A stretch of DNA of 64,000 bases, from the NCBI RefSeq assembly GCF_017348835.2, contig NZ_CP071375.1; one strand, written 5' to 3'. The position numbers and the translations under genes were made by a program. The DNA is from Escherichia coli. Its GTDB lineage: Bacteria; Pseudomonadota; Gammaproteobacteria; Enterobacterales; Enterobacteriaceae. The notes beneath the pieces were generated by a model. That model was not told where the DNA came from, searched no databases, and saw only the letters and a program-made list of their open reading frames with translations. Of this stretch, positions 18,890 through 62,719 are shown in pieces; within the stretch, counting starts at the first letter, position 1, and each line of letters begins with the position of its first letter.

Positions 18890-21484
18890 TCAATCAACCT
18901 TGCCAATCAATCCCTCCCTGGCCGAATACCCGCAACTTTCGTCATCAGTGACTAAAATCACGTTTGCCATCTCCGGATCTTGCCGTTGTTCAACACACCA
19001 CTGCCTGAACGCTTCCCCTTCCAGTAAAGAAAATTCATCCCGATGTTTTTTCCACCAGCTTCGACGCACTCTGGCAACGCTCATTTCCCATGCGTGAGCA
19101 CCGCTGGCATAAGGCTTCACCACACCGTCAATACAGGTAGCCAGCCACAGGGAAACAGACTCTTCAGCCAGACGTGTCGACAGCTTTTCCGGGAGGTAAT
19201 CGTTGATATTGGCGGCATAGCCGGGCCTGAAGTTCAGCATAAACTTTTTAGCCATTGCGCGATCGCAGTAATATTTGCCCACTTGCTCCTGCTCGCTGCG
19301 GGCAAATCCTTCCGGCATTACCACGTCCTCACCGTAGACGGATTCAATAAGAAGCCGGGCTGCGTGTGGCATCTGAATAGCGCCTTGCTCACGCAATACT
19401 CGCTGCGTCAGCCAGATTCGCCCATGATCGGGGTAGACATATGCGCTGTTACGCATCGCACTGCCAAACCATTCGTCACCCGGAGAGTCGTCCCAGACGG
19501 GGGCCAGAATCAGCAATTCAGGAGGGGAACGCTCGTCTTTTCCATCACGCTTTAACTGACCATTAATATCGCGAATATGCCGTTGTAATCGCCCCGCTCG
19601 CTGGATCAGCAAATCAATGGGGGCCAGGTCGGAGATCATTTCGTCCAGGTCAATATCCACACTTTGCTCAATTACTTGTGTACAAACAATGACTTGAGAT
19701 GATCTTTTTAAACTACAATTTTTACCAAAGCGTGCCAGCGTTTCCGTTTCAATTCGCTGGCGATCGCTAAAAGCAAAGCGGCTATGAAAAAGTGAAAGGC
19801 TGGAAGCAGGAATGACGCCGCGGGCAAGTAACTGACGATAAACCTTAATAGCGTCATCGACAGAATTCCGGATCCAGGCGATGCATTTCCCCTGACTTAC
19901 CGCTGATTCGATACGCGCAATACATTCTTGTTCGCTATGAAGCCAACCCACGCTCACGCTACGCTCAACGTCTTTGCGCGTCGCTACCCGGTGCGAATGC
20001 ACATCGGATTTCGTGACATGCGTCAGCCAGGGGTAATCATCCTTTTCCAGGAACGGAGCTTCTTGCTGGCCCTCTGTGCCACGCGCAAAGGCGGCGACAA
20101 GTTTGTCGCGCTGCTGTTGAGATAACGTAGCAGAAAGCAAAATGACGCTGTTTCCGCCACGCACCTGTCGCTCAATCAACCCTTCAAGAATGTACGACAT
20201 GTAAGCGTCACAGGCGTGGATCTCATCAGCCAGCAGGATTTTGTTACTCAACCCCAGAAGCCGCAGATTATTATGTTTAAACGGCATCACTGCCATCATC
20301 GCCTGATCCAGCGTGCCGACGCCAATTTCAGCCAGTAAAGCCTTCTTGTTACTGTCGGCAAACCAGGCTGCACATCCTTGACTGAACGCTTGTTCATCCG
20401 GTTCTTCTGACCCGACTAAATCACCGGACCAGAGTGATTCATTAAAGCGTTCCATTAATGTACGGGCGCTGTGTGCCAGCACCAGGCTGGGGCGGGATTC
20501 TGGCGAAAAGAAAGCAAGCCAGGTTTTGACCAGCCGATCGTACATGGCATTGGCCGTTGCCATTGTTGGCAGGCCAAAAAACAAACCCTGTGCTTTCCTC
20601 GCAGCCATCAACCTGTGCGCCAGGATAAGCGCCGCTTCTGTTTTACCTGCGCCAGTCACGTCTTCCAGAATAAATAACTTTGGCCCTGGCTGGCTGATAT
20701 CCAGATCCAGCACCTTTTGCTGTAATGGTGTCGGGTGCTCAATAAAAGGAAACAGCGTATTAATTCCGGTGAAAGGTGCGGTTTCTGCTTTTGGAGGAAA
20801 GACGGTTAAGGCGTTTTGAGCCTGAACTAAAGTTTTCTGCCAGTAATCTTTAATATCCATTGGGTGTGCGACGCGTGGAAAAAATCGCGTTGACGAACCC
20901 GTCCAGTCTGCGAGTACGACTGTTGCAGAGATATACCAGGAAAGTTGTTTTAAAAGTTCAACGCCCTCGTCATCATCCCAGAATGTGGGAATCTCTATGA
21001 GCGGAAACAGTGCCTTGATTTCAAGGAGAAAATCTCGCGCGGCAGCTTTGTCTTCAGGCAGAAAATTATCCAGCTCATCAATACGGTCAGGTGGTCGACC
21101 ATGATGCCCGGTAGTTATGGACATCCACATCTCTATTACACGTGTAAGTTTACGAGAAGAGAGTGAAGATGAAGGAAGCAACTCCTCACATTCACTTAAA
21201 TAATAATTCCACAGCCAGTAACCCAGCGTTGAATGAGAGATCTTTTCGTAATTCTTTCTGGAACCTTCCGGAATCTTGAGTTCAGGGGCCAGGTAAAGTT
21301 GCTGAAAAGAGCGGGCAAATTTTCCAATATCGTGCCAGCACAACAACCAGGCGAAAAATTGAGCCGCCTGTTCCTTGTCAGAAATCCCTAATTGACGAAA
21401 ATAATCAGCCAGCCCGAAGCAATTTCTTTTAACCATTAAATAGCCCATCGCGGCCACATCCAGCGAATGCCAGCAAAGAAGGTG
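18890..21484 (-). pseudogene. cas3: cas3 (type I-E HD nuclease/helicase), codon 36 to stop; 5' end severed by IS629
   Basis: HD motif HDIGKF, Walker A TGAGKT, DExH box DEIHACD and helicase C-terminal region present. The frame is open upstream right up to the IS boundary at 21484 with no native start; the ORF-track start at 21457 is a GTG. Confidence 0.9.
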
Positions 21485-21538
21485 TGAACCGCCCCGGAAA
21501 TCCTGGAGACTAAACTCCCTGAGAAAGAGGTAAACAGG

Positions 21539-21865
21539 ATGACTAAAAATACTCGTTTTTCCCCCGAAGTCCGTCAGCGGGCGATTCGTATGGTTCTGGA
21601 AAGTCAGGATGAATATGACTCACAGTGGGCGGCAATTTGTTCCATTGCCCCAAAGATTGGCTGTACGCCGGAGACTCTGCGTGTCTGGGTTCGCCAGCAT
21701 GAGCGGGATACCGGGAGTGGTGATGGTGGACTCACCACCGCTGAACGTCAGCGTCTGAAAGAGCTGGAACGTGAAAATCGTGAACTGCGCCGCAGTAACG
21801 ATATCCTTCGCCAGGCTTCCGCTTATTTTGCGAAGGCGGAGTTCGACCGCCTCTGGAAAAAATAA
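21539..21865 (+). CDS. IS629-like OrfA (HTH transposase N-terminal protein)
   Basis: 108 aa, [22 protein letters not shown]..., HTH plus leucine zipper typical of IS3-family OrfA. Confidence 0.9.
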
Positions 21866-22752
21866 TGCCACTGCTGGATAAGCTGCGTGAGCAGTACGGG
21901 GTCGGACCGGTATGCAGCGAACTGCATATTGCCCCGTCAACGTATTACCATTGTCAGCAACAGCGACATCATCCGGATAAACGCAGTGCCCGTGCGCAGC
22001 ACGATGACTGGCTGAAGAAAGAGATACAGCGCGTATACGATGAAAATCACCAGGTATACGGTGTGCGTAAAGTCTGGCGTCAGTTGTTACGGGAAGGTAT
22101 CAGAGTGGCCAGATGCACTGTGGCACGTCTCATGGCAGTTATGGGACTTGCCGGTGTTCTCCGGGGTAAAAAGGTCCGCACTACCGTCAGCCGGAAAGCC
22201 GTTGCCGCATGCGACCGCGTAAACCGTCAGTTCGTGGCAGAACGTCCAGACCAGTTGTGGGTGGCTGATTTTACCTGGGTAAGCACATGGCAGGGCTTCG
22301 TTTATGTGGCGTTCATCATTGATGTGTTCGCCGGATACATCGTGGGATGGCAGGTCTCATCATCCATGGAAACAACATTCGTGCTGGATGCACTGGAGCA
22401 GGCGTTGTGGGCCCGTCGGCCGTCCGGCACAATCCATCACAGTGATAAAGGTTCTCAGTATGTATCGCTGGCCTACACGCAGCGGCTTAAGGAAGCCGGA
22501 TTACTGGCATCAACAGGGAGTACTGGCGACTCGTATGACAACGCGATGGCTGAGAGCATCAATGGTCTTTACAAAGCGGAGGTAATACACCGTAAGAGCT
22601 GGAAAAACCGGACAGAAGTGGAACTGGCCACACTAACGTGGGTGGACTGGTATAACAATCGACGATTGCTGGAAAGGCTGGGCCATATTCCTCCGGCAGA
22701 AGCAGAAAAAGCTTATTATGCTTCCATCGGAAATAATGATCTGGCAGCCTGA
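21865..22752 (+). CDS. IS629-like OrfB (DDE/rve integrase-core transposase)
   Basis: 295 aa rve domain; in the -1 frame relative to orfA, with an A6 run at the overlap. Confidence 0.9.
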   Translation: MPLLDKLREQYGVGPVCSELHIAPSTYYHCQQQRHHPDKRSARAQHDDWLKKEIQRVYDENHQVYGVRKVWRQLLREGIRVARCTVARLMAVMGLAGVLRGKKVRTTVSRKAVAACDRVNRQFVAERPDQLWVADFTWVSTWQGFVYVAFIIDVFAGYIVGWQVSSSMETTFVLDALEQALWARRPSGTIHHSDKGSQYVSLAYTQRLKEAGLLASTGSTGDSYDNAMAESINGLYKAEVIHRKSWKNRTEVELATLTWVDWYNNRRLLERLGHIPPAEAEKAYYASIGNNDLAA

Positions 22753-22794
22753 GTTCACAGATAAAACACTCTCCAGGAAACCCGGGGCGGTTCA

Positions 22795-22902
22795 GTGATA
22801 GTCGTCACCCCCTTCTTTCTCGTCGCGTCGGGTTTTTCCCCAGAAATCAAAGAAAGTCACAATATTTTTATCCTTCAGTAAACTTAAAGGATATTTACGC
22901 AT
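22795..22902 (-). pseudogene. cas3: cas3 5' fragment (first 35 codons) separated from the gene body by IS629
   Basis: Minus-strand translation from ATG 22902 gives MRKYPLSLLKDKNIVTFFDFWGKTRRDEGGDDYH, continuing in frame across the target duplication into ...LLCWHSLDVAAMGYLMV at 21484. Confidence 0.8.
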
Positions 22903-23094: not shown

Positions 23095-23247
23095 CTACTT
23101 CTTCGATTCGTAAGCGAGAACAGCCTTAAACTCCATACCACGTTCCCTGATACTCAACTCACACAACGAGTCGCCTACCATCAGCGTGAATCCCAGTACT
23201 GTACAACACAGTACGATGATTGCCACAAGGGCATATTTTGTCAGCAT
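23095..23247 (-). CDS. Hok/Gef-family type I toxin (50 aa; below the ORF-track length cutoff)
   Basis: Minus-strand [53 protein letters not shown]: one transmembrane helix followed by the Hok signature SLCE...AYE. Confidence 0.7.
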
Positions 23248-23308
23248 GTCTGTGTAAGTTCACAGAGATATTGCAATTGCCTCCGGATAAGTAAGGGGAG
23301 ATTGCACT

Positions 23309-24739
23309 ATGCAAATGCAGCATCTGATGGTTGGCTATCCTAAGTACTACCAAACGGCCGATTATGCGTTGAGGCTTTCAGTGATGGCTGATATAGCAAC
23401 AATGAGAATGAAGGCTCTGCACTTCTGGGATAAACACGGTATTTCTGCAGCTTCTGAAGCCTTTGGCGTGTCCTGCCGCACGCTTTACTGGTGGCGTCAG
23501 TTACTGAACAAGGAAGGACCTGAGGGGCTAATCCCGCACAGTAAGGCACCTCTGGTGCGACGAAAAAAACACTGGCATCCCGATGTGCTGAAAGAGATTC
23601 GACGCCTCAGGACAGAGCTGCCGAACCTCGGTAAAGAGCAGATTTTTGTTCGCCTGAAGCCCTGGTGCGAACAGCGCTATCTGGCCTGTCCGAGTGTTTC
23701 CACCATCGGCAGAATGATCGCTGCCGCACATGATAAAATGCGGATGATACCTGTGCGTCTGGGATCGCGGGGGAAGGCACTGCTTGTCAAAAAGCGGTCT
23801 GCCAAACCCCGCAGGCCAAAGCACTACCGCCCGGTAAAGACAGGTGAGCTCATTGGGATGGACGCCATTGAGCTCAGAATGGGCGAACTGCGTCGCTATG
23901 TCATCACCATGATCGACGAATGCAGCAATTACGCGCTGGCTGTGCCGTCACTCAACAGTGATATCGTCAATCACTTCTTCAGCCGCGCAGCCCGGTTGTT
24001 CCCGGTCGGTATCAGCCAGATAATCACAGATAACGGAAAAGAGTTCCTGGGAAACTTCGACAAAACGCTGCAGGAAGCCGCTATCAAACACCTCTGGACC
24101 TATCCCTACACGCCAAAAATGAACGCTATCTGTGAACGTTTTAACCGGACGTTAAGAGAGCAGTTTATTGAATTTAATGAGATTTTACTCTTTGAAGATC
24201 TGGCGCTATTTAACCAGAAGCTGGCGGAATATCTGGTGCTGTATAACAGCAAAAGACCCCACAAGGCGCTCGCACTAATGACGCCCGTGGAATATATTTT
24301 AAAAGAGAATAAAAATTGCAATATGTGGTGGACCCATACAATGTCTTGCCTCCCTGCAAAGAAGAGACTAACATTCGAATTGCTTAGGTTCGAACGCTGG
24401 CCTCAGGTTGATAGAAATATCGCCTGGGGCTTTTGTCCATCTGGAACCTCGCGAATGCTTAACGCCAGACAGCCTCAAGCACCCGACGCCATTCTATACC
24501 TGATAATTCTTCCAGCGGCGTTCACGTTTAAAATCAGGAATGCTGCTCGCAAAATAAAAACGCCCCCATCATTTCTGACAGAGGCGTTTAATTTATCCGG
24601 CAATATTTACCCTTCGTGTAACCCACATTCCCTTTTTAAGCCAAAGAAACGCGTTTCTTCTTCCGCCATGCCAGGTTCCCATTTACGGGTTGTATGGGTA
24701 TCACCGACCGATAAATATCCTTCGTCCCATAATGGGTGA
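23309..24739 (+). mobile_element. rve-domain (DDE integrase-core) transposase ORF, IS481-like; probably a 3'-truncated IS remnant
   Basis: HTH near the N-terminus (FGVSCRTLYWWRQ), catalytic core with GMDAIE...TDNGKEF...CERFNRT, ending about YNSKRPHKALALMTPVEY near 24300. The ORF then runs ~140 low-complexity codons without a stop and overlaps the cysH 3' end. No terminal inverted repeats recognised. Confidence 0.5.
24553..24590 (-). terminator. Putative intrinsic terminator downstream of cysH
   Basis: Minus-strand hairpin AAACGCC...GGCGTTT followed by TTTTATTTT about 20 nt after the cysH stop; the loop is long, so the hairpin is weak. Confidence 0.4.
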
Positions 24740-57637: not shown

Positions 57638-58448
57638 TTATTGCCCCGCGACAGGTTTCAGCTCGATACGCTTGATATCGCCCACCAGCACCAGGTAGCT
57701 CAGTACCGCGATTAAGGCATGAACACCAACATAAATCAGCGCCCCATTAAACGAGCCAGTCGTGCCAACGATATAACCAATTGCGATTGGCGTGACGATG
57801 CCAGAAATGTTACCGAACATGTTGAACAGGCCACCGGAAAGACCGCTGATCTCTTTTGGCGCGGTATCTGCCATTACTGCCCAACCCAGCGCCCCAATGC
57901 CCTTACCGAAGAAGGCCAGCGCCATAAAGCCGATGATCATCCACTCAACGTTGACGTAGTTGCAGAACACCATCACCATCGACAGCAACATGCCCATTAC
58001 GATCGGTGTTTTACGCGCAATGTTCAGCGATCCCGTGCGGCGCATCAGCCAGTCGGAAATAATCCCACCCAGCACACCACCGATAAAACCACAAACCGCC
58101 GGAACGGAAGCCACAAAGCCCGCTTTCAGAATCGACATCCCACGCGCCTGCACCAGATAAACCGGAAACCAGGTAATGAAAAAGTAAGTCAGGGCGTTGA
58201 TACAGTACTGACCGATATAAACGCCGATCATCATCCGTGACCCGAGCAGCTGTTTGATCTGCCCCCACTTCACGCTGAACGGCACTTTAACTTTGGTGTT
58301 TTGCTGATCCATATTGATCAGCGCGCCACCCGCGGCGATGTACTCCAGCTCTTTCTGATTTACCCCCGGATGTTGATTTGGCTCGTGGATGACTTTCAAC
58401 CAGATAAAGCTGATGACAATCCCCAGACCGCCCATAAAGAAGAAGACG
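57638..58448 (-). pseudogene. gudP: gudP 3' portion (C-terminal ~270 codons of the glucarate/galactarate MFS transporter), severed by IS629
   Basis: Frame reads ...(H)VFFFMGGLGIVISFIWLK... and is open upstream to the IS boundary at 58448. Confidence 0.9.
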
Positions 58449-58502
58449 TGAACCGCCCCGGAAATCCTGGAGACTAAACTCCCTGAGAAAGAGGTAAACA
58501 GG

Positions 58503-58829
58503 ATGACTAAAAATACTCGTTTTTCCCCCGAAGTCCGTCAGCGGGCGATTCGTATGGTTCTGGAAAGTCAGGATGAATATGACTCACAGTGGGCGGCAAT
58601 TTGTTCCATTGCCCCAAAGATTGGCTGTACGCCGGAGACTCTGCGTGTCTGGGTTCGCCAGCATGAGCGGGATACCGGGAGTGGTGATGGTGGACTCACC
58701 ACCGCTGAACGTCAGCGTCTGAAAGAGCTGGAACGTGAAAATCGTGAACTGCGCCGCAGTAACGATATCCTTCGCCAGGCTTCCGCTTATTTTGCGAAGG
58801 CGGAGTTCGACCGCCTCTGGAAAAAATAA
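58503..58829 (+). CDS. IS629-like OrfA
   Basis: Identical 108-aa product to copy 1 orfA. Confidence 0.9.
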
Positions 58830-59716
58830 TGCCACTGCTGGATAAGCTGCGTGAGCAGTACGGGGTCGGACCGGTATGCAGCGAACTGCATATTGCCCCG
58901 TCAACGTATTACCATTGTCAGCAACAGCGACATCATCCGGATAAACGCAGTGCCCGTGCGCAGCACGATGACTGGCTGAAGAAAGAGATACAGCGCGTAT
59001 ACGATGAAAATCACCAGGTATACGGTGTGCGTAAAGTCTGGCGTCAGTTGTTACGGGAAGGTATCAGAGTGGCCAGATGCACTGTGGCACGTCTCATGGC
59101 AGTTATGGGACTTGCCGGTGTTCTCCGGGGTAAAAAGGTCCGCACTACCGTCAGCCGGAAAGCCGTTGCCGCATGCGACCGCGTAAACCGTCAGTTCGTG
59201 GCAGAACGTCCAGACCAGTTGTGGGTGGCTGATTTTACCTGGGTAAGCACATGGCAGGGCTTCGTTTATGTGGCGTTCATCATTGATGTGTTCGCCGGAT
59301 ACATCGTGGGATGGCAGGTCTCATCATCCATGGAAACAACATTCGTGCTGGATGCACTGGAGCAGGCGTTGTGGGCCCGTCGGCCGTCCGGCACAATCCA
59401 TCACAGTGATAAAGGTTCTCAGTATGTATCGCTGGCCTACACGCAGCGGCTTAAGGAAGCCGGATTACTGGCATCAACAGGGAGTACTGGCGACTCGTAT
59501 GACAACGCGATGGCTGAGAGCATCAATGGTCTTTACAAAGCGGAGGTAATACACCGTAAGAGCTGGAAAAACCGTGCAGAAGTGGAACTGGCCACACTCA
59601 CGTGGGTGGACTGGTATAACAATCGACGATTGCTGGAAAGGCTGGGCCATATTCCTCCGGCAGAAGCAGAAAAAGCTTATTATGCTTCCATCGGAAATAA
59701 TGATCTGGCAGCCTGA
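58829..59716 (+). CDS. IS629-like OrfB (rve transposase)
   Basis: 295 aa; one substitution (T to A) relative to copy 1. Confidence 0.9.
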   Translation: MPLLDKLREQYGVGPVCSELHIAPSTYYHCQQQRHHPDKRSARAQHDDWLKKEIQRVYDENHQVYGVRKVWRQLLREGIRVARCTVARLMAVMGLAGVLRGKKVRTTVSRKAVAACDRVNRQFVAERPDQLWVADFTWVSTWQGFVYVAFIIDVFAGYIVGWQVSSSMETTFVLDALEQALWARRPSGTIHHSDKGSQYVSLAYTQRLKEAGLLASTGSTGDSYDNAMAESINGLYKAEVIHRKSWKNRAEVELATLTWVDWYNNRRLLERLGHIPPAEAEKAYYASIGNNDLAA

Positions 59717-59758
59717 GTTCACAGATAAAACACTCTCCAGGAAACCCGGGGCGGTTCA

Positions 59759-60304
59759 GACGTGTGACCAGCCCACTTCATGCGTCAGCCAGCCCATAAT
59801 CGGCGCGAAGATCACCGTTGCGAAGTATTGAGCGGAGTTAAAAATCGACACCGCCGTTCCCCTTTCCTGCGCCGGAAACCAGGCCGCAACAATGCGACTG
59901 TTGCCGGGGAAAGATGGCGCTTCAGCAAGCCCGACCAGGAAGCGCAGAGTAAACAGGGCAACGATAATGCCGAATCCACTAAAGATATCGACGAAGCCTT
60001 GCAGCAAGGTAAACATCGACCAGATAAAGATCGACCAGAAGTAGACGCGTTTTGAACCAAAACGATCCAGCAACCAACCACCAGGGATCTGCCCGATAAC
60101 ATAAGCCCATGAGAAGGCAGAGAACACATAGCCCATTCCCACGGGATCAAGGCCGATATCTTTGGCCATTTCCGAACCGGCAATAGAAAGCGTAGCGCGG
60201 TCGCCGTAGTTGAAGGATGTGACGATAAACAACATCACCACTATCCAGTAACGAGCATTCGTGCGTTTTTCCACACTGCTCGCAGCCTGACTTAAAGAAC
60301 TCAT
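59759..60304 (-). pseudogene. gudP: gudP 5' portion (N-terminal ~181 codons), terminated by a stop supplied by the IS end
   Basis: MSSLSQAASSVEKRTNARYWIVVM...THEVGWSHV then TGA formed by the IS629 terminal TCA (minus strand). Confidence 0.9.
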
Positions 60305-62317: not shown

Positions 62318-62360
62318 AAAGCAACCTCAATAAGAAAAACTGCCGCGAAGGATAGCAGGA

Positions 62361-62719
62361 ATAAAAAAAGGGAGCACTGTATTCACAGTGCTCCCGGTTC
62401 GTTTCGCAGCATTCCAGCTACTTTTGTTGCTCCCTGCTCATCCTTGACAACTTTTCCTCTGGCCTTGCGGCCAATCGTTCATCCTGAACTATTGCTTCCT
62501 GCTCACACCACCCCGATGTGATACTTCATCCTGAAGTGTCCCTGGCCTTCCTGACCCACCGAATCATCCTGACCGGTTCTCATTCTCCATCCTGGAGGTG
62601 TCCTTTAACGCGTCCTGCGTCATCCTCTTCGCTTCATCCAGAAGCCTTTCCCTGAAACACCATCCTGGTGTGTCCTTCAGAAGTGTCATCATCCTGATGT
62701 TCACTTCGTTGTCTGACTC
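62361..62719 (-). ncRNA. csrB: CsrB regulatory sRNA (CsrA-sequestering)
   Basis: Plus strand carries many ATCCTG/TCCTG units, i.e. CAGGA(U/A)G motifs on the minus strand. The 5' end matches GAGTCAGACAACGAAGTGAACATCAGGATG and the 3' end is a terminator hairpin. Confidence 0.85.
62362..62395 (-). terminator. csrB rho-independent terminator
   Basis: Perfect 10-bp stem GGGAGCACTG/CAGTGCTCCC, 6-nt loop, then U7 on the minus strand. Confidence 0.75.

Follow-up and report, generated by a model that had tools for sequence, protein, structure and literature searches.

The main -1 frameshift signal of IS629 is very probably U_UUU_G with an ALIL pseudoknot, not the A-run at the orfA/orfB overlap

Introduction

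At which point of the orfA/orfB overlap do ribosomes shift into the -1 frame to make the OrfAB transposase of IS629? The question is raised by a run of six A residues that ends orfA in an insertion element of the window, the whole stretch of 64,000 nucleotides of Escherichia coli DNA that was analysed here. A 2023 preprint (10.1101/2023.06.07.543989) reported that the IS1203v/IS629 transposase is OrfAB, produced via -1 frameshifting, and that an artificially fused OrfAB greatly exceeds the native arrangement in activity. Sharma et al. 2014 (PMC4066793) reported that tetramers without a stimulator are barely shifty in E. coli, that the order of efficiency with a pseudoknot is A_AAG >> U_UUC > U_UUU > C_CCY > A_AAA, and that U_UU[U,C] and A_AAG are the prevailing tetramers in elements of the IS1 and IS3 families; IS629, IS3411 and IS1203 are not mentioned in the supplements of that study. 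An ALIL (apical loop-internal loop) pseudoknot is used by at least 27 IS elements besides IS3411; its stem 1 lies close 3' of the shift site, and the partner stem-loop follows 44-104 nt further on (Atkins et al. 2016, PMC5009743). According to the summary in PMC5009743, the stimulation of -1 frameshifting by the ALIL of IS3411 was described by Mazauric et al. 2008 (J Biol Chem 283:20421, doi 10.1074/jbc.M802829200).

Results

Two copies of IS629 in the window

The window contains two copies of the element, each 1310 bp long and on the plus strand. Copy 1 (21485-22794) interrupts cas3, 105 nt into the gene, and copy 2 (58449-59758) interrupts gudP. In copy 1, orfA (21539-21865, plus strand) encodes a 108-aa HTH_Tnp_1 DNA-binding protein ending in ...RLWKK, with the stop codon TAA at 21863-21865, and orfB (21865-22752, plus strand) starts with the ATG at 21865-21867 and encodes a 295-aa protein with HTH_21 and rve (DDE integrase core) domains. 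The domain matches were PF01527 on OrfA and PF13276 together with PF00665 on OrfB, and an HTH-containing orfA followed by a DDE-containing orfB in the -1 frame is the IS3 arrangement; the conceptual OrfAB fusion scored 367 bits on NCBIfam NF033516 transpos_IS3 (cut-off 160). Copy 2 differs from copy 1 by three substitutions, all of which are located in orfB (IS positions 1127, 1128 and 1151) and outside the frameshift signal.

Both copies are bounded by 25-bp imperfect terminal inverted repeats (22/25 identical) that read TGAACCG...CGGTTCA with TG...CA ends; imperfect repeats with such ends and a length within 1.2-1.5 kb are typical of the IS3 family. Target-site duplications of 3-4 bp, as expected for this family, were also present in both cases: a 3-bp GTG at 21482-21484 and 22795-22797 for copy 1 and a 4-bp GACG for copy 2. 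GTG and GACG each occur singly in the empty sites of other E. coli strains, the GTG site being that of an O157:H7 genome. These clean duplications indicate that both insertions were real transposition events and that the element moved in this lineage.

The tested flanks of the window were 100% identical to the chromosome of E. coli PE164. Many E. coli genomes carry an exact duplicate of copy 1 (100% identity), and a match is present in 4261 of the 5426 complete genomes of this species. Members of the same 90% protein cluster carry the public names 'IS3-like element IS629 family transposase' and 'IS629 transposase OrfB', and the identification as IS629 rests on these names. Judged from its sequence, the element belongs to IS629 of the IS3 family (iso-IS1203/IS3411), with two copies within the window.

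The A-run at the orfA/orfB junction

The junction at 21851-21867 reads CTC TGG AAA AAA TAA TG in the orfA frame. This confirmed a sequence-only reading of the locus, in which orfA was said to end with CTC TGG AAA AAA TAA and orfB to begin in the -1 frame with an ATG overlapping that stop; the stop and the start share one base in the overlap TAATG. The same reading had placed an identical arrangement in copy 2, and the same 17-mer is indeed found there at 58815-58831. The A6 run itself (21857-21862 in copy 1 and, identically, 58821-58826 in copy 2, both on the plus strand) encodes the two Lys residues at the end of orfA in frame 0 and is dual-coding, as it is part of Glu-Lys-Ile in frame -1. 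It is the sole run of six or more A residues in the element. The window has 0.5 runs of A6 or longer per kb, and approximately 0.03 of them would be expected in the 67-nt stretch in which both frames are open; the placement of the run is thus not trivially a matter of chance.

From this placement, the A6 run had been read as the programmed -1 site that makes the OrfAB transposase. In favor of this assignment, A_AAA is a recognized, though weak, slippery tetramer, it abuts the stop codon with the -1 frame open, the element contains no second A6 run, and A-rich heptamers are the commonest motif of the IS3 family (PMC4066793). However, in the orfA frame the run reads G_AAA_AAA, an imperfect heptamer that does not conform to X_XXZ_ZZN, and the only slippery unit within it is the tetramer A_AAA (21859-21862) directly next to the stop. 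The slip motif was accordingly real as a tetramer and overstated as a heptamer. A slip at A_AAA would give a 404-aa fusion reading ...LWKK/IMPLL... at the junction.

The same protein would arise if RNA polymerase added one A at the run, which would place orfB in frame (...WKKIMPLL...). In E. coli, transcriptional slippage is generally productive only on runs of roughly 8-9 residues or more. The run at this junction is only 6 nt long, and for this reason transcriptional slippage was rejected as the main mechanism; a conserved stimulator of ribosomal frameshifting, described below, is present instead. Transcriptional slippage on A/T runs is known to be used by IS elements (PMC3711429, PMC5009743), but we regard it as scarcely credible here.

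The U_UUU_G site and the ALIL pseudoknot

The open -1 frame reaches back to 21799, 66 nt before the orfB ATG, and within the overlap we found exactly two slippery tetramers in the 0 frame, T_TTT at 21826 and A_AAA at 21859. The first belongs to the motif T_TTT_G (21826-21830 in copy 1 and, identically, 58790-58794 in copy 2, both on the plus strand), which is read as UAU UUU GCG in the 0 frame and lies 31 nt upstream of the A-run. A slip at T_TTT would also give a 404-aa fusion, which differs from the A-run fusion in 11 residues.

This motif is part of a match to the Rfam family RF01497, the ALIL pseudoknot, at 21820-21936 in copy 1 and at 58784-58900 in copy 2; the two matches are on the plus strand, are identical to each other and scored 120.3 bits each over the full length of the model (1-117), with a gathering threshold of 50. 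The consensus of the model opens with UAUUUUGC. The first stem-loop, SL1 (21835-21851, plus strand), reads GGCGG-AGUUCGA-CCGCC, and the second, SL2, occupies 21897-21936 on the same strand. The apical loop of SL1 (21841-21846, GUUCGA) is complementary to the internal loop of SL2 (21902-21907, UCGGAC), and these form the loop-loop helix of the pseudoknot (plus strand). U_UUU (21826-21829) is separated from SL1 (from 21835) by a spacer of 5 nt, and the -1 frame is open at this position, as in the slippery motif of an ALIL signal. A plain thermodynamic centroid fold recovered both SL1 and SL2. A weak snoRNA-like Rfam match inside orfB was set aside as a chance match (E = 0.92).

With respect to this structure, the A-run is located in the unpaired linker between SL1 and SL2, 5 nt past SL1 and 35 nt ahead of SL2. 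A ribosome decoding the run would already have unwound SL1 and would not have reached SL2, so no 3' stimulator stands at the usual distance. In the 38 nt directly 3' of the run (21863-21900), no stimulator was found (z = 0.08 against shuffles, with a centroid that contains no pairs), and there was no stimulatory structure at the 5-9 nt distance that characterizes signals of the IS911/IS150 type. The sequence-only reading had named a downstream stem-loop or pseudoknot as the feature to look for. Such a stimulator exists (120 bits, 21820-21936), but it is positioned for U_UUU, and no significant fold lies directly 3' of the A-run.

Conservation of the frameshift signal among relatives

We compared the junction with those of relatives at 80 loci from bacterial assemblies representing one genome per species, which were picked by OrfB protein similarity and were thus chosen blind to RNA and motifs. 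The position of orfA, orfB and the junction was located for each locus, which gave 51 distinct junctions in the -1 frame. A script that needed a 5-bp SL1 placed this stem in 39 of the 51 distinct junctions, with OrfB identities of 52-100%. T_TTY or T_TTT_TTY was present in the orfA frame upstream of SL1 in every one of these 39 junctions. The spacer to SL1 was 5 nt in 36 of them and 2 nt in the remaining three, which are the three with the stem GCGGG/CCCGC, and the -1 frame was open at the T-run in 38 of the 39. The script failed in 12 of the 51 junctions, eight of which show GCTTTTTTCGC and then GGCGGAGCTCGACCGC with a 4-bp stem. The others were L017, with TATTTTG and a mismatched stem; two Mixta copies (L008 and L012), in which the T-run is broken to TATTTGG; and L028, which is devoid of any T-run.

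The A-run showed a different distribution. Of the 39 scored junctions, 13 have four or more A residues adjoining the stop, each of them from an element with at least 81% OrfB identity to IS629, and the run next to the stop was absent in every scored junction at 52-68% OrfB identity, where the pseudoknot and the T-run were kept. In the distant relatives, orfA ends with ...CCG AAG TGA or similar, and the TRATG stop/start overlap is usually still present.

Covariation was analyzed on a gapless alignment of 117 columns with 55 distinct sequences, again gathered through OrfB protein similarity and not through RNA, and the four ALIL helices, including the pseudoknot helix. Standard pairs were formed in 90.3% of the helix cells, compared with 34-43% when the partners were slid by 1-3 columns. 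Changes on both sides were seen in 12 of the 25 ALIL pairs, and in 500 shuffles no measure came up to its observed value. The loop-loop helix was paired at 98.2% across the 55 sequences, with CG<->UA exchanges (37/17 sequences) and GC/AU/CG exchanges, which is the covariation expected of an ALIL pseudoknot. Across the group, selection thus acts on the ALIL structure and on its constant distance from the T-run, and the A-run is specific to one lineage.

These results bear directly on the A6 run as the main site. All relatives below 81% OrfB identity are missing the run and keep the pseudoknot and the T-run, and in the element itself the nearest stem-loop downstream of the run, SL2, is 35 nt off and SL1 has already melted. 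Together with the imperfect heptamer and the z-score given above, this makes the A6 run a very improbable main site. The kind of event that had been proposed was nevertheless correct, as this is an IS3-family element that RefSeq annotates with a 'programmed frameshift'; its place was mistaken or incomplete, the conserved signal being U_UUU_G plus the ALIL pseudoknot 31 nt upstream.

The A-run within the IS629 subgroup

Within the IS629 subgroup, 13 of the 15 distinct junctions retain the A-run. The exceptions are L004, in which the run is interrupted (GGATAAAA), and L069, which reads AAAAAG. In addition, the IS629-like L020 has a -1-frame stop between U_UUU and the A-run, which means that a fusion in L020 is possible only via the A-run. 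The two Mixta copies keep the A-run and have no ATG at the junction.

One explanation adds the A-run to the U_UUU site as a second one: ribosomes that missed U_UUU would slip at A_AAA with UAA in the A site, giving a second 404-aa isoform at a low level and with a possibly regulatory role. The presence of exactly two in-frame slippery tetramers in the overlap, the 13 of 15 retained runs and the restriction of L020 to the A-run are consistent with such a pair of sites. TTTTG and AAAAT are said to have been named in earlier work on IS629 as two -1 signals that give two fusion products. The title of Chen & Hu 2006 (doi 10.1074/jbc.M602437200), "Two frameshift products...IS629", is likewise consistent with two in-frame tetramers in the overlap. 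However, unstimulated tetramers hardly exceed background in E. coli, with A_AAA the weakest among those that respond to a stimulator (PMC4066793), and the A-run site is not conserved outside the IS629 subgroup. The conservation of the run is also uninformative, because either third-position A change alters the protein in the -1 frame. We consider the chance of a second site at the A-run to be slightly short of even.

On the same ground, the retention of AAA AAA in the IS629 subgroup was rejected as a sign of selection for slipperiness: third-position changes are non-synonymous in the -1 frame. AAA is also the preferred Lys codon in E. coli, which is a further reason against reading this retention as selection.

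Alternatively, the A-run may have no role in recoding. It would then be two Lys codons of OrfA, dual-coded with Glu-Lys-Ile, and an A-rich spacer from a weak GGA Shine-Dalgarno-like triplet to the orfB AUG, with OrfB made by termination-reinitiation at UAAUG. The preference for AAA as the Lys codon fits this explanation, as does the recurrence of the TRATG overlap in many relatives that have no A-run. OrfB of IS629 is also reportedly produced and lowers transposition (PMC5771124, citing Chen & Hu). In contrast, the title of Chen & Hu 2006 implies two frameshift products, and the Mixta copies keep the A-run even though the junction ATG is missing. We judge the odds for and against an A-run that plays no part in recoding to be evenly balanced.

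Public annotation and fusion proteins

In RefSeq, the identical element is labelled 'IS3 family transposase, programmed frameshift', also at this very locus of E. coli PE164, and its CDS is joined from two pieces. The annotation also contains a feature named 'AL1L pseudoknot' with coordinates equivalent to 21820-21936. By exact sequence look-up, the fusion with the T_TTT junction was found as an NCBI protein on 71 contigs, and the fusion with the A6 junction was absent from a collection of 15 billion proteins. This absence from the public databases is a further point against the A6 run as the main site. The database fusion shows where the curated model places the slip; the PGAP junction is model-based and constitutes no experimental proof.

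We also observed that, in automated labelling, one of the two equivalent copies was called a 'frameshifted' pseudogene.

Discussion

The anatomy of the overlap, the Rfam match, the covariation, the conservation and the annotation were all observed directly here, and beyond these we infer the slip at U_UUU and its efficiency. Very probably, the region is the recoding region of IS629, in which the main -1 slip occurs at U_UUU_G under stimulation by the ALIL pseudoknot and the A6 run is not the main site. Most ribosomes on orfA would terminate at UAA (21863-21865), yielding the 108-aa OrfA. A minority would slip by -1, with tRNA-Phe re-pairing from UUU at 21827-21829 to UUU at 21826-21828, and this slip would be provoked by the ALIL pseudoknot that starts 5 nt downstream. 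The shifted ribosomes would then read UGC GAA GGC GGA GUU CGA CCG CCU CUG GAA AAA AUA AUG and continue into orfB, so that the A-run is read as Glu-Lys-Ile (GAA AAA AUA). The predicted product is the 404-aa OrfAB transposase, which combines the HTH, HTH_21 and DDE core regions. OrfB alone can probably be produced by reinitiation at UAAUG. The A6 run would be at most a weak, unstimulated second site, in which A_AAA beside the stop acts as a 'shifty stop' and gives an isoform with 11 different residues.

Some points stand against this assignment to U_UUU with the ALIL pseudoknot. U_UUU is only a moderately efficient tetramer, the L020 fusion is possible through the A-run only, and nearly every member of the IS629 subgroup still has the A-run. 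A_AAA-UAA might be a true second site of the IS629 lineage within the ALIL linker, with its use set by the efficiency of termination and not by RNA structure and with the second isoform modulating the transposase. We put this forward tentatively and tend to doubt it. If true, it would be little new beyond a recent add-on to an older, conserved U_UUY plus ALIL signal, and it was apparently proposed in 2006 (Chen & Hu).

The locus illustrates that an obvious A-run at the stop/start overlap of an IS3-family element need not be the slip site. What is conserved in the IS629/IS51-like group is a short upstream U-run together with a long-range kissing pseudoknot. The choice of slip site alters the predicted OrfAB by 11 residues as well as the labelling of the copies by pipelines. 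IS629 is also of applied interest as a driver of genome diversity in E. coli O157:H7 and Shigella, and in the window it splits cas3 and gudP.

Among known systems, the closest is the ALIL signal of IS629/IS1203/IS3411 (RF01497). The element is identical, the match is full-length at 120 bits, and the RefSeq annotation stands at the same coordinates; no difference was detectable, and the two copies in the window differ from each other only by the three orfB substitutions. The arrangement as a whole has been described before and is annotated as a matter of routine. The IS911/IS150 signal, an A_AAA_AAG heptamer with a downstream stem-loop or pseudoknot, is the model behind the assignment of the slip to the A-run. 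IS629 follows the same family logic: orfB lies in the -1 frame relative to orfA, and the transposase is an OrfAB fusion. In contrast, the junction described here has G_AAA_AAA followed by the stop, with no structure 5-9 nt further on, and its functional motif would be a U_UUU tetramer with a stimulator of another class. IS3 uses an A_AAG tetramer with a classical H-type pseudoknot and makes OrfB by AUGA translational coupling. The overall logic of IS3 and IS629 is similar, namely single-tRNA slippage on a pseudoknot-stimulated tetramer and a stop/start overlap that permits separate synthesis of OrfB, although the components are not the same: IS629 has U_UUU in place of A_AAG, an apical loop-internal loop kissing structure of approximately 100 nt in place of a compact pseudoknot, and UAAUG in place of AUGA.

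Insertion sites and annotation of the two IS629 copies

RefSeq labels the two IS629 copies differently; copy 1 (21539-22752) is annotated as a 'programmed frameshift', and copy 2 (58503-59716) as a 'frameshifted' pseudogene. Upon comparison of the two copies, we found that the recoding region was identical and that the ORFs were intact in both, the sole differences being three substitutions in orfB. Judged from these sequences, the unequal labels look like an annotation inconsistency rather than biology.

Each copy interrupts a gene. Copy 1 (21485-22794) lies within type I-E cas3 (18890-22902, minus strand), 105 nt from the start of the gene, and has generated a target duplication of 3 bp, GTG. 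In RefSeq, an 886-residue Cas3' starts at approximately 21550 on the minus strand, inside copy 1, and an orphan N-terminal cas3 fragment of 36 codons is called at 22795-22902; the 886-residue product would be a predicted chimeric Cas3. Copy 2 (58449-59758; region 57800-60300) splits gudP, the glucarate/galactarate transporter gene, and is flanked by a 4-bp duplication, GACG, which is present only once at the matching point of intact gudP in other strains.

Neighboring RNA loci

A Hok/Gef toxin ORF (23095-23247, minus strand) and the sok antitoxin RNA (24335-24484, minus strand; Rfam match, 105 bits) are separated by approximately 1 kb, and this gap is occupied by an 'integrase core domain' pseudogene called by RefSeq on the plus strand (23309-24337). 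The hok/sok locus (23095-24484) looks to have been broken up by another mobile element. The small RNA CsrB was found at 62360-62719 on the minus strand as a full-length Rfam match (383 bits).

Related elements in other genomes

Among the loci retrieved by OrfB similarity, four (L002, L003, L004 and L006) were IS629 copies with 95-98% identity on short contigs, whose recorded sources are Clostridia MAGs, Terrisporobacter mayombei and Acinetobacter idrijaensis; their placement likely reflects contamination with enterobacterial DNA or mis-binning.

In the IS629-like copy of a Martelella alba contig (L020:1156-1272), the apical loop of SL1 carries a C-to-T substitution, as a result of which the -1 frame contains a UGA stop after T_TTT and before the A-run. 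The substitution also reduces the loop-loop helix to four Watson-Crick pairs and two G-U wobbles. As read from this sequence, a fusion would be possible only through a slip at the A-run. This copy may simply be decaying, or it may hint at a usable A-run route.

Mixta mediterraneensis carries at least 12 copies (L008-L018 and L023) of a related element with 83-85% identity. The T_TTT site, SL1 and the A6 run are all retained in this element, with the T-run or SL1 mutated in a few copies (TATTTGG, GGGGG). The orfA stop is TAG, and the orfB ATG is absent at the junction in these copies; OrfB would be predicted to be expressed there mainly as the OrfAB fusion.
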